A DNA stretch of 64,000 nucleotides, from positions 12,121-76,120 of the forward strand of contig JAHEIW010000005.1 in the NCBI GenBank assembly GCA_024639185.1. The letters are read 5' to 3'. The notes under the pieces are model-generated. The model searched no databases. It saw only the letters and a program-made list of their open reading frames with translations, and was not told the DNA's origin. Source of the stretch: Deltaproteobacteria bacterium (lineage in GTDB: Bacteria; Desulfobacterota; Desulfobacteria; Desulfobacterales; JAHEIW01). This document shows positions 967 through 13,866 of this stretch, piece by piece (the stretch's first letter is position 1; each line of letters opens with the position of its first letter). The translations under genes and the position numbers were made by a program.

Positions 967-1512
967 CTACCTGACAGTTGCCTCTCCCAGTTCAATCCCG
1001 ATATCCAGCGCTTTGCGGTTCATATCCAGAAAATCAGCCGGAATGCGATTTTCCAGCGCTTTCATAATCGATTCGGGACTGACCACTTCTACGATGGCCG
1101 AAACGGCGCCGAGCATGCAAATATTGAAAACAATAGGCTTGCCGATTTTTTCTAAGACGGTTTCATACAATGCAATCTCTTTTTGCTGGGCATCAACTTT
1201 TTTTTCAGTTTGCACATAGCGGCTGTCGCTGATCAGCAAGCCTCCCGGCCGGATAATCGAATAAAATTTATTGTAGGCTGCCTGGGTCAGGCAAACGAGC
1301 ACATTGGGTTGAATCACTTTTGGATAATGGATAGTCGTGTCGGATATGATGATATCAGAACGCGTTGCCCCCCCGCGCGCTTCCGCCCCATAAGATTGGG
1401 ATTGGATGGCATTTAGACCATCATACAGCACGGCAGCTTCGGCCAAAATAATGGCTGCAGTGATGACCCCCTGCCCACCCGAACCTGAAAATACCATTCT
1501 GCATCTTTCCAT
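967..1512 (-). CDS. 2-oxoacid:ferredoxin oxidoreductase, gamma subunit (OFOR set 1)
   Basis: 181 aa. FSGSGGQGVITAAIILAEAA is typical of POR/KOR gamma subunits. Last gene of a delta-alpha-beta-gamma operon. Confidence 0.85.
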   Translation of the reverse strand: MERCRMVFSGSGGQGVITAAIILAEAAVLYDGLNAIQSQSYGAEARGGATRSDIIISDTTIHYPKVIQPNVLVCLTQAAYNKFYSIIRPGGLLISDSRYVQTEKKVDAQQKEIALYETVLEKIGKPIVFNICMLGAVSAIVEVVSPESIMKALENRIPADFLDMNRKALDIGIELGEATVR

Positions 1513-1514
1513 TT

Positions 1515-2318
1515 TTAGCGACCTTTCATGGCTTTTTGCACCAGCTGTTCATATTGGTTGCAATACTCCGGCTTCTCATTCTGGACAAAAATCCCGCGCT
1601 CGATCAGATTCGGATTTTCTTTTTTGGCTTTTGAGCCAATCGGTGTCGTGTTTTCCTTATAATAAGCAATCATGTCAACGGCATCGCCGGCTTTGTTTTT
1701 GCGACCGAAATACGTGGGGCACTGTGAGAAAATTTCCACGACTGAAAAGCCCTCATGTAAAATGGCCTGTTGAATAATGTCAGCCATCTGCTTAATGTGA
1801 AAGGTTGTGGTCCGGGCCACAAAGGTGGCACCGGCTGCTTTTGACAGTTCCACGACGTCAAAACCAGGATCAATGGTCAAATAGGGCGCCGTTGTTGCCC
1901 TGACATCTTCACCTGATAACGGCGAAAACTGCCCGCCGGTCATACCGTAGATGCGGTTGTTCATGACAATAGCGGTAATATCGATATTGCGGCGCGCCGC
2001 ATGGATAAAATGGTTTCCGCCGATGGCCAGCGCATCGCCGTCACCCATGGGCACAATCAAATTGAGTTCCGGGCGAGCCATTTTGACACCCGTTGCAAAA
2101 GCCAGCGCACGGCCATGAATCGTATGCAGGGTATGAAAATCCACATAGCCGGTAATGCGCGATGAACAGCCAATACCCGAGACCATGACGATCTCGTTTC
2201 GGCTGAGCCCCATTTTTTCAATGGCTTGTAACAAGCCGTTTAGGACTGTGCCATGACCGCACCCCGGACACCAGAGATGAGGAAAAAATCGTTCTCGCAA
2301 ATATGCTTTTAGTGCCAT
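1515..2318 (-). CDS. 2-oxoacid:ferredoxin oxidoreductase, beta (TPP-binding) subunit (OFOR set 1)
   Basis: 267 aa. WCPGCGHG cluster motif and GDGD..IGGNHFIHAARRN TPP motif. Only 2-5 nt gaps to the flanking subunit genes. Confidence 0.9.
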   Translation of the reverse strand: MALKAYLRERFFPHLWCPGCGHGTVLNGLLQAIEKMGLSRNEIVMVSGIGCSSRITGYVDFHTLHTIHGRALAFATGVKMARPELNLIVPMGDGDALAIGGNHFIHAARRNIDITAIVMNNRIYGMTGGQFSPLSGEDVRATTAPYLTIDPGFDVVELSKAAGATFVARTTTFHIKQMADIIQQAILHEGFSVVEIFSQCPTYFGRKNKAGDAVDMIAYYKENTTPIGSKAKKENPNLIERGIFVQNEKPEYCNQYEQLVQKAMKGR

Positions 2319-2323
2319 CGCTT

Positions 2324-3472
2324 TTAAACCCCCTTACCCTGGATCAACCGCAAAATTTTTAAAATATCAGCTGGCATGATAAAAACGCCGTCAATGCGAT
2401 TGGCCAAAAACACCTTATCGGGCTTATCCACTGCAAGCTTTACCGATTGAAGAACCTGTCCCATGTTCTGCTCAACAACGATAACCGATTGAGCTGCAGC
2501 GCATTTTTCACGAACTATTTCATCTGGAAACGGCCAGAGTGTCTGCAATTCCAACAGGCCCAGGCGTTCACCGCGCGATCTTCTTTTTTCTACGATATGG
2601 CGGGCCGAGCGGGCCGACGAACCGTAAGATACCAGCAGGTGCTTGGCATCCTCAATATAATATTCCTTGTAGCGCGCCAGTTGATTGACGCGGTTCTCAA
2701 TTTTGTCGACCAGATGACGCAGCAGACCATGCACCGCCCGGGGTTCGCTGGACGGAAACCCCCACATATCATGAAAAAGCCCGGTCACGTTGTAGCGATG
2801 AACCTCACCGAAATCAGACATCGGCAAGCGGCCATCTTCGCGTGGCAGATAGGGATGGTAATCAACGCCTTCTTTGACGGAAGTTTTCAGCCGCTCGACA
2901 AGGGGCATTTCACCGGGTTGCGGAACCACGAGACGCTCCCGCATATGGGCAACAACCTCATCGAGCAGCAAAATTACCGGTGTCCGGTATATTTCAGCCA
3001 AATTAAAAGCCTCGACCGTCAGCGCAAAGATGTCCTGATGATTTGAGGCCGTAAGTGCGATGATGGCATGGTCGCCGTGGGTCCCCCAGCGGGCTTGATT
3101 CACATCACCCTGGCTGCCGTGGGTAGGCAGTCCGGTAGACGGCCCGCCACGCTGCACGTTGACGATCACACATGGAATTTCAGCCATGATGGCATATCCT
3201 AAAGCTTCCTGCATCAGAGAAAAACCGGGTCCGCTGGTGGCGGTCATCACTTTACAACCGGTCAGAGAAGCGCCGATGATGGCACACAGCGACGAAATTT
3301 CATCTTCCATCTGCATAAACTTTGCGCCAATTTGCGGCAGTCGTGAAGCCAAAAATTCAGTAATTTCCGATGACGGTGTAATCGGATAGCCGGCATAAAA
3401 ATTTAATCCTGCGTACAGAGCAGCTTCGGCACAGGCTTCATTGCCTTGGACAAATTTTATGTTTTCGCTCAT
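2324..3472 (-). CDS. 2-oxoacid:ferredoxin oxidoreductase, alpha subunit (OFOR set 1)
   Basis: 382 aa. GNEACAEAALYAGLNFYAGYPITPSSEI and VQRGGPSTGLPT motifs. Confidence 0.9.
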   Translation of the reverse strand: MSENIKFVQGNEACAEAALYAGLNFYAGYPITPSSEITEFLASRLPQIGAKFMQMEDEISSLCAIIGASLTGCKVMTATSGPGFSLMQEALGYAIMAEIPCVIVNVQRGGPSTGLPTHGSQGDVNQARWGTHGDHAIIALTASNHQDIFALTVEAFNLAEIYRTPVILLLDEVVAHMRERLVVPQPGEMPLVERLKTSVKEGVDYHPYLPREDGRLPMSDFGEVHRYNVTGLFHDMWGFPSSEPRAVHGLLRHLVDKIENRVNQLARYKEYYIEDAKHLLVSYGSSARSARHIVEKRRSRGERLGLLELQTLWPFPDEIVREKCAAAQSVIVVEQNMGQVLQSVKLAVDKPDKVFLANRIDGVFIMPADILKILRLIQGKGV

Positions 3473-3481
3473 ATCATACGC

Positions 3482-3688
3482 CTATTCTTTAGTTTCAACC
3501 TCGATCGCCAGATCCGGGCAGCGAAGCTCACAAAGTTTACAGCAGATACAGTCCTGAGGTCGCAACGCCGAGACCTTTTCGTGATCGTCCAATTCCAGAA
3601 CCTTTTTTGGGCAAAGCGCAACACAAATACCACATCCCTTGCACCAATCATTGTTGATATGATGTTTTTCCAATTTTGGTTTGGCCAT
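3482..3688 (-). CDS. 2-oxoacid:ferredoxin oxidoreductase, delta subunit (2x[4Fe-4S] ferredoxin)
   Basis: 68 aa with CKGCGICVALCP and CICCKLCELRCP motifs. First gene of OFOR operon 1. Confidence 0.85.
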   Translation of the reverse strand: MAKPKLEKHHINNDWCKGCGICVALCPKKVLELDDHEKVSALRPQDCICCKLCELRCPDLAIEVETKE

Positions 3689-3841
3689 TTAAATCCGCTC
3701 ACTGTTTATTAGAGGTGTTTTAAGAAACGTGTAAAGTGGCTCAATATTGATTATACGGATGAATGTCAAGGAAAACAAGATTTCACAGATGCATTGTTGC
3801 GGTCTGCTATGGTATCGACCAGGTTTGCTTCGCATATAAAT

Positions 3842-3937
3842 TGGTATTTTGGAATGATGGAATACGGGAATATGGGGCCTCAAAGTTGCATCGCTTTAAC
3901 CGCTATTCCAGCATTCCATTATTCCACCATTCCACTC
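3842..3937. repeat. periodic-arm palindrome (octamer word GGAAT / ATTCC)
   Basis: Left arm: TGGTATTT TGGAATGA TGGAATAC GGGAATAT (3842-3873). Right arm: CTATTCCA GCATTCCA TTATTCCA CCATTCCA (3903-3934). Lies between the hdrA stop and the OFOR-1 promoter region. Confidence 0.75.
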
Positions 3938-4003
3938 ATACAATGTAGAGCCAGCACCGTTAAAAGCTACATGCTTTCAATATGGTTTAGCAATTCCAAG
4001 AGG

Positions 4004-6565
4004 CTAATGACTTGGTCGCAACCAGTGGACGCTGTTGGATCGGCAGTTGGGACAGATACGCTCCCACTCTACATTGAATCGACCGTCCCATAATTGATCG
4101 CACCGGTGGCAATGGAATTGAGCTGCGCTGTTTTCGTCAGCCGGTTTGGGATTCCGGGGCCGGGGTACCCGAACCTTTGACAACTCAGCGCGGGTCAGCT
4201 CTATTTCTTCGGATGTCACCGATTGGCGCTTCTTCTCAGCTTCCTGCATAATCGTCTGCCAGCGGCCACCTTCAGCAGCCGAACACCATTCCAACATCAG
4301 CCGCTCCGGTCGGATACCCATTTTTATCAATTTGTCCCATAAGCCGTCAATACGGCGAACCGTACTTCGATTGGCATCAATGTAATGACAGTCGACATAG
4401 TGACAGCCTGAAACCAGCACAACGGGCGCACCCTTTTGAAATGCATACCACACGAATTCGGGATGCACCCGCCCCGAGCACATGGTCCGTATAATAAAGG
4501 CATGGGGCGGGTAAGCCATACGACTTAAACCGGCTGTGTCAGCACCGGCGTAGGAACACCAGTTACAGGCAAAGGTTACGATTTTTTCCTGACAATTTTC
4601 TTCCAGAATAGCCTCAATTTGGGCATAGATCGCCTGGTCTGAAAAATGCCGCATTTCAATGGCCCCGAATTTACATTCGGCCGCACAGGTCCCACATCCG
4701 GCACAGGCCGCACTGATGATCTGGGGGATCTGCTTCTTTTCCCAGGCTATGGCACCATAAGGACAGACATTGGCGCATTGACCACAGCGGGTGCACGGTT
4801 CTTCATAAACAACCGCTGTGATCGCTTCAACGGCGAAATGGTTTTTTTGCAACAAAATAGAGGCCCGCGAACTGGCGGCGCTGGCCTGGGTGACACTTTC
4901 GCGAACATCTTTGGGGCTTTCAGCTGCGCCGGCAATGTAGACCCCCTTGGTGGGTGTATCCACAGGCCTCAGCTTTGCATGCGCTTCTTTTAGAAATCCA
5001 CCGGGAGATTTGGACAGACTGACCATCTGACGCACAAATTCGGTATCAACGGCCGGCACAGCCCCAACCGCCAACACCAACATATCAAATTCACATTTTT
5101 CAAGACGCTTTTCGGTTGTATTTTCAACCGTCACCCATAAGTTTTTGCTGTGCGGGTCTTCCCGGACCTCACCGGGCAAGCCGCGCAAATATCGGACCCC
5201 ATGGCCGCGGGTCCGCATCAAAAGCTCCTCAAACCCTTTTCCAAAAGCGCGAATATCGGTATAAAAAATCGTAACGTCTGTATCCGGGTAGTTATCAATC
5301 AGGTATTGGGCGCCTTTAATGCTGTTCATACAGCAAATATTGGAGCAATAAGGGTTACCGCGGTCAGGGTCTTGGGTTCGAGAGCCCACACACTGAACGT
5401 AGCCGATACGCAAGGGTCGCTTCTTGTCGCTAGGCCGTCCTAAATGTCCGCCCAATGCGCCTCCGGTGGAAATCAGCCGTTCAAATTCAAGGCTGGTGAC
5501 AACATTGACAAAGCGCGTGTACCCGTATTCATCCAGGGCGGTCGGATCATATATGTCCATACCGGTGGCAACAATGATAGCGCCAATATCAATATCGATA
5601 AGCGCGTCTTCCTGGTCAAAGTTAATGCATTTTTTTTCACAGGATTCAATGCACTTTCCGCAGGCAATCGGGTTGCGACCCAAACAATCTTCGGCTGAAA
5701 CCACATAAGCTGAGGGAACGGCTTGCGGAAATGGGATGTAGATCGCTCGACGGCTGCTCAGTCCCATTTGGAATTCATCGGGGACGACCACCGGACAGAC
5801 GGCCACACAATCACCGCAAGTCGTGCATTGATCTTCATCAACATACCGGGGTTTTTTTCGAATCCGCGCTTTAAAATTACCCACGTATCCGGTGACATCT
5901 TCTAAAACAGCATTGGTCATGAGCTCAATTCGGGGATGCCGACCGACATCCATCATCTTGGGCCCAAGAATTCAGATGCTGCACTCAATGTCCGGATAGA
6001 CTTTGTCGAGCTGGGCCATAATACCGCCAATGGACGGCTTTTTTTCAACCAGATAAACCGGGTGTCCTGCATCTGCCAGATCCAGGGCCGCCTGCATGCC
6101 GGCCACTCCCCCGCCAATCACCAGGGCCGCATCCGTTACCGGAATGTGCTCCTCATCTTGGGGATAGAGCCATTTGGCACGGGCAACGGCAACCCGCACG
6201 ATATCCAATGCTTTAGGAGTGGCAGCTTCACGATCAGGCGTCACCCAGGAACAATGCTCACGAATATTCGCCATTTCCAGCAAATAGGGATTCAACCCGG
6301 CTGCTTGGATGCATTGCCGAAAAATGGGTTCGTATGAAGCCGGTGAACAAGACGCAACCACCACGCGGTTGAGTTTGTGATCGAAAATGGTTTGTTGAAT
6401 TTCTTGCTGGCCCGGATCGGAACACGTGTATTTGTTGCGGACCGCCACGACCACATCCGGTAACCTCTCGGCGAACCGTTGAACCTCGTCGACATCGACA
6501 ACTCCGGCAATATTGGAGCCACAATCACATACAAAAACGCCTATCCGCAATTCTTCTTTGGTCAA
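4004..6565 (-). CDS. hdrA: HdrA-like flavoprotein fused to an MvhD domain; selenoprotein with one in-frame UGA (about 853 aa)
   Basis: Track ORFs 5972..6565 and 4004..5956 are in the same frame, separated only by TGA 5972-5974. Read through, the junction is LDKVYPDIECSI-U-ILGPKMMDVGRHP, which matches the conserved HdrA DCSMCIL.PK motif with Sec at a Cys position. The C-terminal part has the MvhD motif FACNWCSYAGAD...GCH..DCHY. TTG start at 6565 is preceded by AAGGAGG with a 6-nt spacer. Confidence 0.8.
5934..5951 (-). promoter_or_regulatory. candidate bacterial SECIS apical hairpin
   Basis: The mRNA GGAUGUC-GGUC-GGCAUCC forms a 7-bp stem (one G-U pair) with a GGUC tetraloop. This is the same loop as the E. 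coli fdhF SECIS. The loop lies at +31..+34 from the U of UGA. Confidence 0.55.
5972..5974 (-). other. in-frame UGA read as selenocysteine
   Basis: TGA interrupts an otherwise continuous HdrA frame at a position that is Cys in the HdrA motif CS.C-IL. A SECIS-like hairpin follows. Confidence 0.7.
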
Positions 6566-6681
6566 ATTTGGCCTCCTTTGCGCAATCAGAACGTTTTTCG
6601 TTTTAGATTAAATTCCGGCCTGTGATCATTTTGAGCCGATTCGGAAACCAGGCATCTCTCAATAAAGGCCAAACGGTCGGC

Positions 6682-7149
6682 TCAACATTTTTTCCGCTGC
6701 CATGTCTGATATTGTTGCCCGCGTGCAATTTCTTTATCCTTAAAGAACTGCCGGTCCCGAGCTGCTTGCTCTATCGCCTCCTGAAAGGCTTTTTTAAACT
6801 CCTCGGAATCAAACTGGGCCTTGCTAAAAAAATCAAAAGCCTGGTACTGTTTAAAAGCTTTGCGTTGCGTTTCCATGGTACCGTAGCCGGTGACCATGAT
6901 CACACGGGTAAACGAAAGTCGTTTGCGGATTTCGGCCAGCAAATGAACGCCGTCCTCATTGCTGTCATCCCCGTCAACCAATCGAATATCCAAAACAGCG
7001 AGATCCAGATCTTTGTTTTCATCCATATAGGCAAGGGCTTCTGCTTTCGTCGCTACAGCCTGGACCAAATGCCCTTGGCGTTCCAGCAGTCCGCTCAGCA
7101 GTCCTCGCCAATCGGCGTAGTCATCTACAATGAGGACTTTTCCTCGCAT
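6682..7149 (-). CDS. response regulator, receiver (REC) domain only, with a short C-terminal tail
   Basis: KVLIVDD...LDIRL..GDD..DG...VIMVTGY receiver motifs and no recognisable output domain. The ATG at 7149 is preferred because GGAGGAG lies 6 nt upstream; the track ORF starts at TTG 7164. Confidence 0.85.
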   Translation of the reverse strand: MRGKVLIVDDYADWRGLLSGLLERQGHLVQAVATKAEALAYMDENKDLDLAVLDIRLVDGDDSNEDGVHLLAEIRKRLSFTRVIMVTGYGTMETQRKAFKQYQAFDFFSKAQFDSEEFKKAFQEAIEQAARDRQFFKDKEIARGQQYQTWQRKKC

Positions 7150-7165
7150 TTTTAGCTCCTCCAAA

Positions 7166-7315
7166 GGTTCAGCGTTCAGAGGTTCAGGGTTCGGCGCTCA
7201 AGCTGCTGGCTTCTCGCTTCTTGCAGCTGGCCCGTAATGCACAGCTCACCGACAAGAGGCCAGTGATCAGCAGTTGGTAACCTCAGAACCTTTGAACCTT
7301 GAACCTATGAACCGG
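7166..7315. repeat. nested periodic-arm palindrome (outer word GGTTCAG / GAACCTN, inner word GCTGCTGGC)
   Basis: Left arm: GGTTCAG CGTTCAG AGGTTCAG GGTTCGG (7166-7194). Right arm: TAACCTCA GAACCTTT GAACCTT GAACCTAT GAACCGG (7278-7315). Inner GCTGCTGGC / GCCAG..CAGCAG arms. Fills the kinase-regulator gap and overlaps the kinase 3' end. Confidence 0.75.
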
Positions 7316-9012
7316 GTTACCGAGGCCGGTAACCTAATAATAAACGTTGCGCCGTTATCCGGCTGGCTGTGGCATTCGATGGTTCCACCCTGGCGCTCGA
7401 TAAACGTCTGCATCCACCACAATCCAAACCCGAGGCCGTCATCACTGGGTTGAAATAAATTCCATAAATGGTCCAAATGATGGGGTGACATCCCCTTGCC
7501 GGTATCACTGATGTTAATCCGGATCCAGGGGAGCCCATCAATTTTTTCCGATCGGCTGCTGATCTCGAGCCGTCTGAGCCTTCGACGCTGCATGGCTTTG
7601 CAAGCATTGGTAATGAGTTCAAGGAATATGTCCAGCAGAAGCAAATTGCAATTCACCAGGGGCAGATGTTTATCATAGTCACAAACGATCTCGACATCAT
7701 CCGGTATGTCGGCAGAGTCTAACGCTTCATTGAGTAGCCGGTTTACGTCAAATCGAGTCGAGGGACTGGATTCCTTAAACGGTCTGAATAAGGTTTCGCT
7801 GAGCTTAAGAATAAACTGTGCATTCCGATTGATGCGCTCCAGGTTAGACTGGACCCATCGACGATCTGCTTCAGAAAGGTTCATCTTGGCTACCATTTGC
7901 AGCACCTCACTGGCACTAACCGGCACAACCCCTAACAGGTTATTAATGCGATGCGCCAGGGCAGTCGCTGCCTGGCCCATCACGGCCCACTTTTCGGCAG
8001 CCAGACGCCGCTCTTGCTCCGCCTTGAGTTTTTGAAGCTGAGTGGCGTTTTGGATGGCAATGACCGCCTCCTGAGCCAATGCTTCCAGAAGTTCAACATC
8101 CTGTTCGTCAAAAGCGGCCGGACGAGAACTCTCTAAAAGCAAAACCCCGATGAACTCTCCTTTTTGGAGTTGTCCGTCTAAGCTGTACAATAAGGGCACC
8201 GAAATGCTCGAACGCATATCCTCAAAAAGAACGACATTTAAAGGGTCCTTGCGAACATCAGGGCTAAGATAGGGCCGTTGTTTTTCGGCCACCCAGCGAG
8301 CAATTCCCTGCCCAATGCGAGGCGTATACGCCATCTTTTCTTTTGTCCACCCTTTTCCGTAGTGCGCCTTGAGGGCAAGATGACCGGTCTCAGGTTCCAG
8401 ATGCCGCAGCGAGCCATGTTCGGCATCGACCAGTTCAGCGGCTTTTTCAAGGATCAGATTCAGGACGTGATCCAATTCAAGGCTCGAAGTCAGCGCCACA
8501 TCAATGGTATGCAAGGTGCGAAACTGAGCGGTCATGCGGGCCAGCCGCTCGTTTTGCTGGGCAACCGATGCTGTCAGGTCTGCCAGAGATTGGATGAGGG
8601 CGATATCTCGCTTGCTGAAGGTTCGTCCAGGCTTACGATCGAAAACAATCAGCAGCCCGCGAACGGCTTCCTGCCAAACCAGAGGCGCCGCCATCAAAAC
8701 AGATTGATCCGGAAGCGTTTTAACAAAAGCTTGACGAGAATCGATTATTTCTTTTAGAAGCACCTCATCCCAGGGCTCTTTGGGCAGATTCTGCGTGGCC
8801 AGCAAGATTTTGTGACCGCGTTCCGGATCGCACAGGTAAAAACCACTGCCTTCGGCACGGCATTGAAACGTCGCCTGTCGGACAACGCTTTGGAGCAGAT
8901 TCGGATCCAGTATATCCGTTGAGGCAATATTCGGGTGCATCATATTAAGGCCACTTTTCGCTTTGGTTAAAATATACCCGCCAGACAGATCTTGTTCAAC
9001 GCCAGCGTTCAA
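7267..9012 (-). CDS. cytoplasmic sensor histidine kinase with tandem GAF-like domains
   Basis: 581 aa. I saw no hydrophobic TM segment. GAF-like regions, H-box ALAHRINNLL, and an HATPase region (NA.KA, DTGKGM, GLGFGLW, GATFIIRLP). The start is uncertain: TTG 9012 overlaps the upstream stop, and ATG 8943 is the alternative. Confidence 0.85.
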   Translation of the reverse strand: MNAGVEQDLSGGYILTKAKSGLNMMHPNIASTDILDPNLLQSVVRQATFQCRAEGSGFYLCDPERGHKILLATQNLPKEPWDEVLLKEIIDSRQAFVKTLPDQSVLMAAPLVWQEAVRGLLIVFDRKPGRTFSKRDIALIQSLADLTASVAQQNERLARMTAQFRTLHTIDVALTSSLELDHVLNLILEKAAELVDAEHGSLRHLEPETGHLALKAHYGKGWTKEKMAYTPRIGQGIARWVAEKQRPYLSPDVRKDPLNVVLFEDMRSSISVPLLYSLDGQLQKGEFIGVLLLESSRPAAFDEQDVELLEALAQEAVIAIQNATQLQKLKAEQERRLAAEKWAVMGQAATALAHRINNLLGVVPVSASEVLQMVAKMNLSEADRRWVQSNLERINRNAQFILKLSETLFRPFKESSPSTRFDVNRLLNEALDSADIPDDVEIVCDYDKHLPLVNCNLLLLDIFLELITNACKAMQRRRLRRLEISSRSEKIDGLPWIRINISDTGKGMSPHHLDHLWNLFQPSDDGLGFGLWWMQTFIERQGGTIECHSQPDNGATFIIRLPASVTRFIGSRFKGSEVTNC

Positions 9013-10172
9013 AGATGATTCGCGATTAGCGTCGTCAAGTCTTGAATCTCAAGGTTGAGACTATCCTCCAGCTGTGGATCCTGCTGGGCACAACGAAAAT
9101 GAATCTGGCATTTAACACAACTTGTGATCATTCGGCGGACACCTGTTCGTGACGCTTCCTTTAACCGCTCGATCTGGATATTCTTGCTGACCTGTCCACA
9201 AGACGTCCACCCGGTGGTGCCGCAGCACAGGCTGGCATTGCGGACCCGTTCCATTTCCCTCAAATCCAATCCCAGAGCCGCCAATAACAATCGCGGTTCA
9301 TCGTAGATATCAAGATAGCGACCCAACCGGCAGGGGTCATGGTAGGTGACACGCTGCTGATTTTCCGCCGCCAGAACAAGATGCCCATCAGCAACGGCCT
9401 GCGCCAAATATTGGGTCAGGTGAAATACCGCCATGCCATGGTCCGCGACCCGTTTGGGGTATTCCCGGGCGAGCATAAGGGCGCATTCCGGACAGGTGGT
9501 CAGAATGATTTTAGCACCGGTGGCGCTGAGGTGTTCAAGATTGCGTTTGGCCAGAACCTGAAATGTCTGCATATCCCCTTCCCATAGCTGATCGTGACCG
9601 CAGCAACGCTCGTCAGCCATAACCTGAGGCGCGATCCCCAGATGGTTCAAAATTTTTACTGCGGCCCTGGCAATGTCGATGCCCTCTATATCCAAATGCT
9701 TGAATAAGGTATCATAGTAAGGCAAACATCCGGTAAAATACACAATCTCCGAAGAATTAGATATCTGAAGTTCTGGTGTGATCCAATCCAGGCGATGTTG
9801 TTCGAGCCCCGCTTCGGTCATCATTTTACCCCAGTTTTGAATAGCGGCTCCATGGGTGCATTCACCGGTTTGTCCGCATCCTCTGGCCAGGGTTCTGGCC
9901 TTCTGTATGAATTCGGAAAAATAGACATCCGATGGACACAGCAAACTGCATCGCTGACATGTCAGGCAGGACCAAAACAACGGATCTTGCATGATCTCCT
10001 CGGGCTGACCATCGATAGCCTTCTCCACCAGTAATCGCGGGCTGCTATAGGAACGGGTTTCCCAACGGGTGATCGGGCATACGGCACTACACTTACCACA
10101 TTCCTGGCAATACCATGCCCGACATTGTTGGATAATGTCTTTTATTCTATCCATGCTGCTACCCGTCTCCAT
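9009..10172 (-). CDS. HdrD-like iron-sulfur protein (2x[4Fe-4S] plus two CCG cysteine-rich domains)
   Basis: 387 aa. CQECGKCSAVCP and CLTCQRCSLLCP ferredoxin motifs, followed by CCG-type repeats (FTGC, ERCCGH, TTCPEC; HDPC, LCCG, TSCVKC). Overlaps the upstream giant Hdr gene by 14 nt. Confidence 0.8.
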   Translation of the reverse strand: METGSSMDRIKDIIQQCRAWYCQECGKCSAVCPITRWETRSYSSPRLLVEKAIDGQPEEIMQDPLFWSCLTCQRCSLLCPSDVYFSEFIQKARTLARGCGQTGECTHGAAIQNWGKMMTEAGLEQHRLDWITPELQISNSSEIVYFTGCLPYYDTLFKHLDIEGIDIARAAVKILNHLGIAPQVMADERCCGHDQLWEGDMQTFQVLAKRNLEHLSATGAKIILTTCPECALMLAREYPKRVADHGMAVFHLTQYLAQAVADGHLVLAAENQQRVTYHDPCRLGRYLDIYDEPRLLLAALGLDLREMERVRNASLCCGTTGWTSCGQVSKNIQIERLKEASRTGVRRMITSCVKCQIHFRCAQQDPQLEDSLNLEIQDLTTLIANHL

Positions 10173-13100
10173 TCAGACCATCCATAAAGAGTTGTATTTT
10201 TGACACCCAGGATTCTGCGCAGTCGGTCGCGATTCGATCCATGACAAGGCATTTATTTGAATGTCCCAACAGCTGCATTAAGCGGCTGGTCAAATCAAAT
10301 GTTTTTTGAGCACGCAGGTAGCCAAATGTATAATGGCATTCATCCGGCGCGCACCCCAGCAGCAAAACGCCGTCGGCACCCAGATGAAAGGCGTTAAGAA
10401 GGATCCCCGCACTCAAGCGACCCAGGCACATGACTTTTAAGGGATAAACCCAGGGTGTGTAGGATGCATGCTGGCGGCCCGCGGCTTCAAGCCCCCGGAA
10501 GGCATTCCAATTACATGTAAAAACGACTGCCTTCTGCCTGGCATTCATATCATCTGCTTTAAGGACCGCTGCAAGCATGGCTCCCAGCTGTTCATCCGTC
10601 GCATAGCCCGCTGTGATAGCTCCGGAAGGACATTGTGCGGCACAGCTGGCGCAGCCCGAACAGATCATCGGATCAATCCAGGAGTGACGCTGCGGTTCTT
10701 CTCCAATCAGTTGCGGCGCACCCAAGTCACATATATCGATACATGTTTTACAGGCCCGGCAGCGGTGCGGATCGACCGAGGCTGCCATGGGCTTGGGCTG
10801 TTCGGTCAGCTGATGCAACCAACCGGTCACCTTGACGGCTGCAGCCGCTCCGCTCGATCGGCCATTTAGCGGGTCACAGAAAAAAACGCCCGGCAACAGC
10901 GTCTCAACATCCGGTGGCATCGTTTTGAGGCGCTCGAATTCAACTGATGTCGCAAATGCATTGCACAACAGCTCCGTCTCGACCGCGTCCTGCGGTGCCA
11001 GCACGACAGCTGTTGCTCGCTGGACCGTCAATGGATTCGAAACCGCATATTGCCCATCGACACGCCTGATTTGATGGGGCAACTGCTCGGCGGCGCGGGT
11101 GACAATATGCCGGTCATTGAGTATATTCTGACACATCCGTGCCGCTGCGCTGTTGCCCACAATCAACACGGACCGTTCAGCGTCCATCGATCGGATCGCT
11201 TGGGGGGACGCCATCTTCAACTTGACAGCAGCGGCTGCAATCAACATATCTGCCTTGGCGGTCGCGGCCGCCGGGTCATCAGCATGCACCCAGGCACAAT
11301 GCTCGCGGATATTCACAAATTCCCATATCAGATTGGACGAATTCCCAGCTGACAGGCGATCTTTTGGAATGCGTGAACCGTGAGTGCCGGTCGCAAACAG
11401 ACCCAGGTTATCTTTGCAGCGAACCCGCTGATAGGTACAACTGAAGCAAACCTGGTCCAGTGAACAGCAGCTGCAGGCAGCTAAAAGCACCCGCTTCAGA
11501 CCGTGATCCAGCACTGCATTATCAATGAATTCAGCTGCTTCCGGCAAACAGGCCTGGGGAATTACAGCAGCATGAATGACGCCGGGAAGACCAGCTGATT
11601 GCTGGCACAACGCATCCGTATCGACGACCCGAGCGATGTGATCGCCACACTGGCAAATAAACACACCCATGCGCGCAGGGCTTCCCGGATACGCTCCCAT
11701 CTGAGTAGATGAGGCCGCAAAATGCCGCTCGGCGCGTGTATGGTGCATGGCGTGGGCAGCCGCAACAGAGCCTGCAAATGTCTCTTGGGGTGATACGTGA
11801 TAAATGCCAGGTCCTTCTTGCAGCTCTAATTGCGCAAATGTTGTCGGACCGCCGGCCAGAATAATGGCACCCATTTCGAAGTCGACGATTTTTTCACGCT
11901 CAGCATGGTTAACCGCTCCTGCTTTGCAAGCCGCGATACAGGCCATACATTCACTGCAAGGACCACAGGCCAGGCAGCGTTGGGCTTCGGCAATTGCCTG
12001 TTCTTCTGAATAGCCCAACTCCACCTCGCAAAAACTGCTTAAACTTTCCGCCTGTGACAGGACCGGCACGGATATCCGCGGCTTGGGGACCAGCTCTGCT
12101 GCGGTCATGGGCCGCTCTGAAATTGACATCTGAACGGTATTCTGTGTGTGACCGTTTGGCGATTGGCCATTGATACCGTCATTGGCGTTGGTTTCATCCG
12201 ACCGCTGGTTGAGGCGAACCGCTTTTAAATCGCACTGCTCAAGATACCGATCGATGCTTTCAGCAGCCTGTTTACCGCTGGCAATGGCCTCTATGACTGT
12301 TTGGGGTCCGTAAAGCGCATCGCCGCCGGCAAATACCCATGGTATGCTCGTTTGCAGCGTTTCCGGATCAGTCTGGATGCCTCCCTGGGGTGACCGCATA
12401 ATGTTCTCTGCTTCTAAAAAGTTCATTTCAGCGCGTTGGCCGATGGCAATCATTACGGCTTCCGCTTCCAGGGTATTGATTTCATTTTCATCATACTGGG
12501 GATTAAAATTGCACTGATCATCAATAACGCATGTGCACCGTTTGAATTCAATTCCGGTAAATTCGTTGTTTTTGCTCAGGAAGCGATGCGGCCCAAAACA
12601 ATTGACAATTCTTATACCGGCTTCCAGTGCCTCTTTAATCTCGTCATCGCGCGCCGGCATTTCTTCGCGGGTTTCAAGACAAACGATGGTAACCGCTTTT
12701 GATCCCAGGCGTCTGGCAGTCAGAGCCACATCGACGGCCACATTACCCCCCCCAACAACGATAAGTTTTTCAGCTGTCGACACCTTTTTGCCCAGCGCAA
12801 CATCACGCAGAAAAGACACCCCATCAAAGACGCCGGATAGGTTTTCTCCGACAACCCCGAGTCTGCGGCTGCCGTGCAACCCGGTGGCCAGAAAAAGCGC
12901 TGAATATCCCTTTGATCTCAGCGTCTGGAGATTAATGTCTTTGCCAAAAGCAATCCCTGTCTTGATGTTAACGCCCATTTCCGCGATGGCATTGATTTCC
13001 GCTTTCAGAATATCCCTGGGAAGACGATAAGATGGGATGCCCACCGCCATCATACCACCGGCAACCGGGAGCTTTTCAAAAACCGTCACCTTATAATTTT

Positions 13101-13866
13101 TAAGCGCCAGATCATGCGCTGCTGTCAGACCAGCCGGGCCTGCGCCAACTATTGCTATCCGTTTGGCCCCGACAGCTTGCGATGGTATTTTAGATTTTTT
13201 ACGCTTTGACGTGTTGCCCTTTTTGAGTTCCCAATCGGCAATAAACCGTTTAAGCTGCCGAATGGCCACCGGCTCGTCTACTTCTTTACGACGGCAATTG
13301 ATTTCGCAGGGATGGGTGCATATCCTGCCGCAGATGCCCGGAAAAGGAATGGCTTCCCGCACCAGATCCAGTGCTTCTTGAAAACGCCCTTGCGCGATAA
13401 GCGCCACATAGCCCTGGACATGGATACCCGCCGGGCAGGCATGCGAGCAAGGCGCTAGGCCCAATTTATCGATAACGGCAGACTGGGGCTGAAGGCCATC
13501 TTTAAGGTAGATGGCTTTGTGATCATTTCCAGGCACCTGCACCGGACAGGCCTCGAGACAGTCCCCGCAGTTCGTGCATCGGTTTAAATCGATATATCGC
13601 GGCCGCATCTGAAGACGGACCTTGAAAACATCTCTGATTTTCTCAGCACTTTTTAACGCAGTGTGGGTCAATAGGTGAATACGGGAATGTTTGGCGACCT
13701 TTAGGGCGTGAGCACTCGAAATATTATCGGGGGGCTTGCCGACCGGATCGTCCCCAATGAAAGGTGAAATGTCTGTCAAAAGGACTTCAACACCGGCTTC
13801 GGCCAGATCAAGGGCTGCCTGGAGCCCTGCGGGGCTTCCGCCAATAATAAGGACGCCTGGGTTCAC
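10159..13866 (-). CDS. giant HdrA / GltD(NfnB)-like NAD(P)H oxidoreductase / MvhD fusion protein (HdrL-like)
   Basis: 1235 aa. N-terminal GxGxxG FAD fold plus ferredoxin CTNCGDCLEACP. Central GltD-like block (IAIVGAGPAGLTAAHDL, VVGGGNVAVDVA, FAGGDA). A second HdrA-like part (FICQCG, NIREHCAW). C-terminal MvhD motif (FTCNWNAF...GCAPDECHY). Confidence 0.8.
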   Translation of the reverse strand: MNPGVLIIGGSPAGLQAALDLAEAGVEVLLTDISPFIGDDPVGKPPDNISSAHALKVAKHSRIHLLTHTALKSAEKIRDVFKVRLQMRPRYIDLNRCTNCGDCLEACPVQVPGNDHKAIYLKDGLQPQSAVIDKLGLAPCSHACPAGIHVQGYVALIAQGRFQEALDLVREAIPFPGICGRICTHPCEINCRRKEVDEPVAIRQLKRFIADWELKKGNTSKRKKSKIPSQAVGAKRIAIVGAGPAGLTAAHDLALKNYKVTVFEKLPVAGGMMAVGIPSYRLPRDILKAEINAIAEMGVNIKTGIAFGKDINLQTLRSKGYSALFLATGLHGSRRLGVVGENLSGVFDGVSFLRDVALGKKVSTAEKLIVVGGGNVAVDVALTARRLGSKAVTIVCLETREEMPARDDEIKEALEAGIRIVNCFGPHRFLSKNNEFTGIEFKRCTCVIDDQCNFNPQYDENEINTLEAEAVMIAIGQRAEMNFLEAENIMRSPQGGIQTDPETLQTSIPWVFAGGDALYGPQTVIEAIASGKQAAESIDRYLEQCDLKAVRLNQRSDETNANDGINGQSPNGHTQNTVQMSISERPMTAAELVPKPRISVPVLSQAESLSSFCEVELGYSEEQAIAEAQRCLACGPCSECMACIAACKAGAVNHAEREKIVDFEMGAIILAGGPTTFAQLELQEGPGIYHVSPQETFAGSVAAAHAMHHTRAERHFAASSTQMGAYPGSPARMGVFICQCGDHIARVVDTDALCQQSAGLPGVIHAAVIPQACLPEAAEFIDNAVLDHGLKRVLLAACSCCSLDQVCFSCTYQRVRCKDNLGLFATGTHGSRIPKDRLSAGNSSNLIWEFVNIREHCAWVHADDPAAATAKADMLIAAAAVKLKMASPQAIRSMDAERSVLIVGNSAAARMCQNILNDRHIVTRAAEQLPHQIRRVDGQYAVSNPLTVQRATAVVLAPQDAVETELLCNAFATSVEFERLKTMPPDVETLLPGVFFCDPLNGRSSGAAAAVKVTGWLHQLTEQPKPMAASVDPHRCRACKTCIDICDLGAPQLIGEEPQRHSWIDPMICSGCASCAAQCPSGAITAGYATDEQLGAMLAAVLKADDMNARQKAVVFTCNWNAFRGLEAAGRQHASYTPWVYPLKVMCLGRLSAGILLNAFHLGADGVLLLGCAPDECHYTFGYLRAQKTFDLTSRLMQLLGHSNKCLVMDRIATDCAESWVSKIQLFMDGLNGDG

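Follow-up and report, generated by a model that had tools for sequence, protein, structure and literature searches.

A probable selenocysteine codon and its hairpin in an HdrA–MvhD fusion gene of a Desulfobacterales bacterium

The gene and its internal UGA

The window analysed here, a stretch of 64,000 nucleotides (nt) of contig JAHEIW010000005.1 (positions 12,121 to 76,120 of the forward strand; assembly GCA_024639185.1) from a bacterium of the order Desulfobacterales, carries on its minus strand, at 4004-6565, a gene for subunit A of a heterodisulfide reductase (HdrA) that is fused to an MvhD-like part. The gene opens with a TTG start codon (6565-6563), runs for 853 codons plus a stop and contains a single internal UGA. 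Direct reading of the sequence (caaaGGAGGccaaatTTG) places a Shine–Dalgarno sequence, GGAGG, at 6572-6576 of the same strand, 6 nt before the TTG, and orthologues align from residue 1 of the product of 853 amino acids (aa). An earlier reading, made from the letters without database searches (hereafter the sequence-only reading), had described two open reading frames (ORFs) of 197 and 650 aa that share a frame and are parted by one TGA at 5972-5974, and the same layout was obtained when the region was read again: the TGA is the sole interruption between the ORF at 5972-6565 (197 aa) and the ORF at 4004-5956 (650 aa), both on the minus strand. When the TGA is read as selenocysteine (Sec, U), the Sec becomes residue 198 of the 853-aa product, in the context LDKVYPDIECSI-U-ILGPKMMDVGRHPRIEL (also written VYPDIECSI-U-ILGPKMMDVGRHPRIEL). 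Taken together with the evidence below for the codon and for a functional bacterial selenocysteine insertion sequence (SECIS), we suggest that 4004-6565 very probably encodes one selenoprotein of the HdrA2 type, in which HdrA is joined to MvhD and to a short tail rich in Cys.

End-to-end alignment with solved HdrA and MvhD bears out the 853-aa HdrA–MvhD fusion named in the sequence-only reading, which was incomplete in one respect: both parts are present, and a further tail lies beyond MvhD. The HdrA portion (residues 2–657; 4595-6562, minus strand) comprises, on the basis of phmmer alignments and Pfam, an N-terminal iron–sulfur (Fe–S) domain, a domain that binds flavin adenine dinucleotide (FAD) and resembles thioredoxin reductase, and ferredoxin domains; phmmer aligns residues 2–657 without interruption to solved HdrA from hydrogenotrophic methanogens (8rvu_a, 736 bits; 5odc_A, 730 bits). 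In the 853-aa product Pfam reports an FAD Rossmann domain, in the region of which a GGGVAG motif is present, two Fer4 domains and a C-terminal FlpD/MvhD domain. The MvhD-like [2Fe-2S] domain spans residues 659–781 (4223-4591, minus strand; Pfam FlpD, 3e-40; 5odc_D by phmmer, 128 bits, 3.6e-36), and the tail, residues 817–853 (4007-4117, minus strand), reads as a zinc-ribbon-like CxxC-x15-CxxC. By alignment, members of the Sec clade, one Anaerolineae orthologue among them, have this tail, and Cys-type HdrA2 homologues that are 61–63% identical lack it.

The UGA (5972-5974, minus strand) occupies the second position of C195-S-I-U198, and the codon of its likely partner, Cys195, is read at 5981-5983 of the same strand. 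In phmmer alignments U198 falls on the second Cys of DCSMCILAPKM or DCSICILAPKM in solved HdrA, and a Cys also stands at this position in the 61–63% identical HdrA2 homologues; the sequence-only reading had thus rightly assigned the UGA to a Cys position of a conserved HdrA segment. The HdrA alignment passes the codon, which lies well inside the FAD domain, without a break, and the homologues show neither a domain boundary nor a true stop at this point. In HdrA of Methanococcus maripaludis the equivalent position is Sec197, part of a Cys–Sec (selenylsulfide) feature located between FAD and an Fe–S cluster in the cryo-electron microscopy structure of Hdr–Vhu–Fwd (PMC13518236). By homology with this residue, C195 and U198 probably form either a redox pair beside the FAD, which would cycle between the selenylsulfide and the selenol/thiol within a flavin-based electron-bifurcating complex, or an element that would tune the flavin.

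A hairpin conserved together with the UGA

Shortly after the UGA lies the hairpin GGAUGUC-GGUC-GGCAUCC (5934-5951, minus strand), which the sequence-only reading had described as a stem-loop of 7 base pairs (bp) beginning 21 nt past the UGA and which was located in this form by minimum-free-energy (MFE) folding and comparison. Its 5′ arm GGAUGUC (5951-5945) and 3′ arm GGCAUCC (5940-5934) pair over 7 bp, one U-G pair among them, around the 4-nt loop GGUC (5944-5941); the hairpin opens with the 21st nt past the UGA, and the spacing between UGA and loop is 27 nt (5971-5945). The hairpin appears in the MFE fold of the region, and the 18-nt element alone has an MFE of −8.8 kcal/mol, with values from −6.5 to −11.5 kcal/mol across the variants found in orthologues; the lower helix of the window's MFE fold is not conserved among them. 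The published model of bacterial SECIS elements calls for an apical loop of 3–9 nt, an upper stem of 4–16 bp, a spacing of 16–37 nt and an MFE of at most −7.5 kcal/mol (PMC13188914, Fig. 2A), with a G as the first or second loop nucleotide and a G or U next after it (PMC13188914). A loop of 4 nt reading GGUC, a stem of 7 bp, a spacing of 27 nt and an MFE of −8.8 kcal/mol place the present hairpin within this model in every term.

Both the codon and the hairpin are conserved far beyond this genome. Among 60 relatives examined in the order, every orthologous match across the site contains a single in-frame TGA, and TGA stands at the site in 29 of the 29 parsed orthologous loci; a scan of GTDB species genomes yielded 80 further loci (65–96% identity), with TGA in 79 of the 79 that were parsable. 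The TGA and the hairpin thus occur at the same spot in 108 of 108 orthologous loci from metagenome-assembled genomes (MAGs) of Desulfobacterales and Anaerolineae. Four loci that the motif search missed (L041, which starts past the site; L076; and L137 and L139, in which the motif is divergent) were excluded and not scored as negative, and covariation was assessed in true orthologues only, paralogues with another hairpin being left out. The orthologue hairpins follow the consensus GGAUGYC-GGUC-GRCAUCC in the same register throughout, and their GGUC loop is invariant in 91 distinct sequences.

Codon usage in these sequences (91 distinct 75-mers) shows that synonymous sites are frozen precisely at the hairpin codons, +8 to +12 after the UGA: Asp +8 is GAT (91/91), Val +9 is GTC wherever Val is encoded (84/84), Gly +10 is GGT (91/91), Arg +11 is CGG or CGA only, and His +12 is CAT (91/91). 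Outside this interval, Gly +3, Pro +4 and Pro +13 each use all four synonyms, and the flanking Cys, Ile, Leu and Lys codons vary freely. In the pairing alignment (86 distinct sequences), stem pair 6 is U-A in 61, U-G in 18, C-G in 7 and C-A in none, and the Val-to-Ala change that converts GUC to GCC is seen only alongside CGG. Altogether 99.7% of the alignment cells are paired, a value that none of 500 shuffles reaches, and sliding the 3′ arm by 1–3 columns reduces pairing to 18–57%.

Comparison with Cys-type homologues separates the constraint on the RNA from that on the protein. Four Cys-type HdrA2 homologues from Dehalococcoidia/Chloroflexota (61–63% identical) encode the identical peptide KMMDVGRHP after TGT or TGC, with the codons GAC GUG GGN CGY CAY, and their sequences, when forced into the hairpin, give +0.2 to −2.6 kcal/mol as against −8.8 kcal/mol here; the hairpin is also absent from the more distant Cys homologues that were compared. 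Given that the same peptide occurs without the hairpin in Cys homologues, the UGA, and not the peptide, dictates the hairpin. An alignment to Cys-containing HdrA had been proposed in the sequence-only reading, and it returned both a Cys at residue 198 and the absence of the hairpin in the Cys types. These loci amount to a natural experiment in which one peptide is accompanied by the hairpin with UGA and lacks it with UGY, which isolates the RNA-level constraint of a bacterial SECIS.

Selenocysteine machinery and the weighing of alternatives

The genome to which the window belongs (5.09 Mb, 443 contigs, 92% complete) was searched for the Sec machinery, as the sequence-only reading had recommended, and all of selA, selB, selC and selD were found. 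The tRNA-Sec scores 75 bits in Rfam and is called SeC(tca), with a UCA anticodon, by ARAGORN; SelA (527 bits) lies in a 487-aa frame, the wing-helix domain of SelB lies within a 643-aa open frame, and SelD (369 bits) is encoded further along this contig, 5.5 kb outside the window (contig positions 81674-82594, minus strand). The selD gene itself has an in-frame TGA and reads TCG-U-AAKIGP; the site is presumably the catalytic Cys position of Escherichia coli SelD, in which case SelD would likewise be a selenoprotein.

TGA also occupies the equivalent codon of four other HdrA paralogues of the genome (contig C203, 6313-7575; C342, 7530-8819; C411, 1843-3114; C326, 11331-11783), and at least four more have Cys there. 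The hairpin of the Sec-HdrA paralogues differs from that of the window, reading CUGGUCG-AGGU-CGGCCGG and lying 6 nt nearer the UGA; the idea that the window's hairpin is common to all Sec-HdrA genes of this genome was accordingly rejected, the paralogues having the AGGU-loop form. Two hairpin types in one genome indicate that SelB evidently tolerates some variety. Several MvhD-like matches with one TGA each were also observed (on contigs C342, C376, C348, C326 and C405), and the MAG appears to be rich in selenoproteins. Within the window, 18 TGA sites have 60 or more open codons both before and after them, and besides hdrA none is a credible Sec gene, the remaining sites being short or giving low-complexity, antisense-like translations; of 34 long frames in the window, 11 end in TGA, one of these being the hdrA site.

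Because the frame is continuous, Cys and Sec are equivalent at this position, the conserved hairpin is tied to UGA and selA, selB, selC and selD are present, we hold it to be highly likely that the UGA at 5972-5974 truly codes for Sec and that its hairpin works as a bacterial SECIS. The UGA would be decoded as Sec during translation, with the hairpin inside the coding sequence, 21–38 nt after the UGA, serving as the SECIS and recruiting SelB-GTP-Sec-tRNA(Sec) to the ribosome while the UGA occupies the A site.

Several observations weigh against this assignment. The single-sequence fold is no better than that of shuffled sequences (z = −0.6, 66 nt) and alone could be due to chance, so that the significance of the hairpin derives from comparison with other sequences. 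An Rfam scan of 5700-6200 at E ≤ 10 found no SECIS family and returned chance matches only (Hammerhead_1, E = 0.1; CRISPR-DR25, E = 3.5), a result that neither supports nor refutes a SECIS. The covariation comes from one variable pair, four of the seven pairs being invariant, and most of the support for the hairpin consists of frozen synonymous sites and not of compensatory change. The likeness to the SECIS of enterobacterial fdhF (UGACACGGCCCAUCGGUUGCAGGUCUGCACCAAUCGGUCGGU; PMC4489274), which the sequence-only reading had put forward, holds only in part: both are hairpins within the coding sequence just past the UGA and both have an apical GGUC tetraloop, but the fdhF loop lies 18 nt after the UGA, whereas the loop here lies 27 nt after it (9 nt further), and the 7 uninterrupted pairs here leave no bulged U, which fdhF requires and E. 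coli SelB needs. Finally, the complex and the physiological substrate proposed below are deduced from synteny alone.

Other explanations of the TGA fare considerably worse. One is that the UGA is recoded, but with Sec as only one of the outcomes: the selenium supply would determine how much full-length enzyme is made relative to a truncated 197-aa product, or a near-cognate Cys or Trp would take the place of Sec at low selenium, making the codon a regulatory switch as well as a catalytic residue. The retention of Cys-type HdrA paralogues beside the Sec type in this genome is in line with such a switch, as is its resemblance to the Se-dependent isoenzyme switching of Methanococcus (PMC13518236); yet the genome yielded no copy of this orthologue with a Cys codon, and we regard the switch as quite improbable.

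A true stop, in a split gene or a pseudogene, would yield a 197-aa N-terminal protein and, via re-initiation at the ATG at 5956, a 650-aa C-terminal protein. An ATG does lie five codons past the TGA, and gene callers give the 650-aa product in the catalogue entries listed, but no Shine–Dalgarno sequence precedes this internal ATG, and the break would split the FAD-binding domain, parting its GxGxxG motif from the remainder. The interruption is, moreover, TGA and never TAA or TAG in the 108 orthologues, which range from 57 to 96% identity and belong to two phyla, with both halves intact and an RNA hairpin constrained at synonymous sites after the TGA. We reject a pseudogene because decay would not retain TGA specifically while leaving both halves intact, and consider a true stop of either kind very improbable. 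The chance that the TGA stands for a TGC or TGT through faulty sequencing or assembly, a reading favoured only by the general possibility of error in a 443-contig MAG, is negligible, given that the same TGA recurs in all 108 loci from independent assemblies and studies and is shared by the four same-genome paralogues. Reassignment of TGA (codes 4 or 25) was also rejected, as TGA ends other long frames of the window and the aligned residue of homologues is Cys.

Gene neighbourhood, relatives and annotation

The neighbouring genes all lie on the minus strand and follow, in order of transcription, as a 1235-aa fusion, an HdrD-like gene, a GAF histidine kinase, a receiver-only response regulator, the Sec-HdrA-MvhD gene and the delta, alpha, beta and gamma genes of a 2-oxoacid:ferredoxin oxidoreductase (OFOR). 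The 1235-aa fusion (10159-13866) combines HdrA-like, GltD/NfnB-like and MvhD-like parts (Pfam) and is syntenic with the Sec-HdrA gene (tblastn), and the HdrD-like protein (9009-10172) has two CCG domains and a ferredoxin domain (Pfam). The HdrD-like gene lies 2.4 kb upstream of Sec-HdrA, with the kinase and regulator genes between them, whereas in most Anaerolineae loci no kinase or regulator intervenes and the giant fusion, HdrD and HdrA follow one another directly; in the Cys-type HdrA2 homologues, HdrA2 immediately follows a CCG (HdrD-like) gene of 382–385 aa. Downstream, the OFOR genes occupy 967-3688 (Pfam POR_N, TPP_enzyme_C and POR), the 68-aa 2×[4Fe-4S] ORF at 3482-3688 being the delta-subunit gene. 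Between the hdrA stop and this gene is a 315-nt gap (3689-4003) with no convincing ORF. The OFOR genes and the synteny of the cluster are kept in Desulfobacterales relatives (tblastn). On the basis of this gene order, we infer that Sec-HdrA-MvhD may supply the flavin subunit to a soluble complex that bifurcates or confurcates electrons, in which its partners would probably be the HdrD-like protein, as disulfide-reducing subunit, and the 1235-aa fusion, as NAD(P)H-binding subunit. Such a complex would exchange electrons with the ferredoxin produced by the adjacent OFORs and connect it with NAD(P)H and a disulfide acceptor.

The distribution of this gene type crosses a phylum boundary. Outside its own family, the window's protein has its nearest orthologues in Anaerolineae (73–78% identity, as against 57–59% to those of other Desulfobacterales families), and in a quick LG+G4 tree, the rooting of which was assumed and not inferred (it was placed on tail-less Desulfobacterales orthologues), all 27 Desulfobacterales sequences that belong to the window's type fall into a single starred clade, which is nested within a grade of Anaerolineae. 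The giant fusion, HdrD and HdrA genes (4004-13866 of the window; loci L055–L134) are syntenic in both phyla, and SelB was found in three of four Anaerolineae genomes tested. Variation in the SECIS across both phyla is confined to stem pair 6 (U-A, U-G or C-G), and the element would apparently be functional in both; an 18-nt element that is conserved and seems to work in two phyla may offer a compact object for studies of SelB specificity. These observations suggest that the gene, along with its SECIS and probably the rest of the cluster, passed between the phyla in one direction or the other. More tentatively, and as a possibility that we would not favour over its negation, the whole module (that is, the NfnB/GltD-HdrA-MvhD giant fusion, the HdrD-like protein, the tailed Sec-HdrA-MvhD and the SECIS) may have passed between Anaerolineae (Chloroflexota) and a single family-level group within Desulfobacterales, and may encode an NAD(P)H- and ferredoxin-linked electron-bifurcating disulfide reductase with the Cys–Sec pair serving beside the flavin as a redox relay.

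HdrA is well established as a family of selenoproteins, found in Methanococcales and Methanopyrus and in multiple copies in Deltaproteobacteria (PMC1794560; reviewed in PMC13188914), in agreement with the occurrence that the sequence-only reading had cited. Compared with the Sec-HdrA of Methanococcales (M. maripaludis, with Sec197, and M. jannaschii) and with solved HdrA (5ODC/8RVU), the present protein has the same domain order over 656 aligned residues (730–736 bits), with Sec or Cys likewise at the second position of the C-x-x-C beside FAD. It differs from these in that MvhD and the Cys-rich tail are fused to it, and its gene has a bacterial in-frame hairpin, whereas archaeal Sec-HdrA genes have the SECIS in the 3′ untranslated region. 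The present locus has no adjacent hdrBC or vhu genes, and, the host being a Desulfobacterales bacterium and not a methanogen, the heterodisulfide of coenzymes M and B (CoM-S-S-CoB) is an unlikely substrate.

Among Deltaproteobacteria, Sec-HdrA has been reported from Syntrophobacter fumaroxidans (seven copies), Syntrophus and Desulfotalea (Zhang et al. 2006, PMC1794560), and the pattern described there, of several Sec and Cys paralogues per genome together with Sec-containing MvhD/FrhD relatives, recurs in the present genome. Those genes belong to glpC-hdrA-frhD-frhG-frhA hydrogenase operons, often with rearranged or duplicated hdrA fusions; here, by contrast, the canonical domain order is fused to MvhD without such an operon, and the gene has a two-component system on one side and OFOR genes on the other, the HdrD-like gene and the NfnB-like fusion being located upstream. 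The HdrA2 of Methanosarcina and the Cys-type ‘CoB-CoM heterodisulfide reductase HdrA2’ of Dehalococcoidia/Chloroflexota are HdrA–MvhD fusions as well (61–63% identical), sharing the peptide DCSIC/U-[IV]LGPKMMDVGRHP and the position right after a CCG gene; the Cys type, however, has Cys (TGT or TGC) for Sec and lacks both the SECIS hairpin and the zinc-ribbon-like tail. The locus thus adds no new principle, Sec-HdrA having been known in Deltaproteobacteria since 2006 and the family having been a textbook one since 2004–2006, although its architecture and neighbourhood differ from the bacterial cases described.

Its main value lies in annotation and in a clean example of synonymous constraint imposed by a SECIS. 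The sequence-only reading had warned that naive annotation would split or truncate the gene, and the orthologues confirm this: among the best 120 matches listed from a catalogue of 5.8 billion proteins, the close orthologues (≥75% identity) are post-TGA fragments of 645–663 aa with 76% query coverage. These C-terminal fragments are without the N-terminal Fe–S domain, the FAD Rossmann motif and the redox-active Cys–Sec pair, and what looks like systematic mis-annotation across the MAGs of Desulfobacterales and Anaerolineae distorts metabolic inference from domains in both groups; the correct annotation would be a single 853-aa selenoprotein in place of fragments of 197 and 650 aa. The names in the catalogue vary with the source: JGI gives ‘heterodisulfide reductase subunit A’, and for some entries NCBI gives ‘hydrogenase iron-sulfur subunit’, which reflects the MvhD domain and overlooks HdrA.

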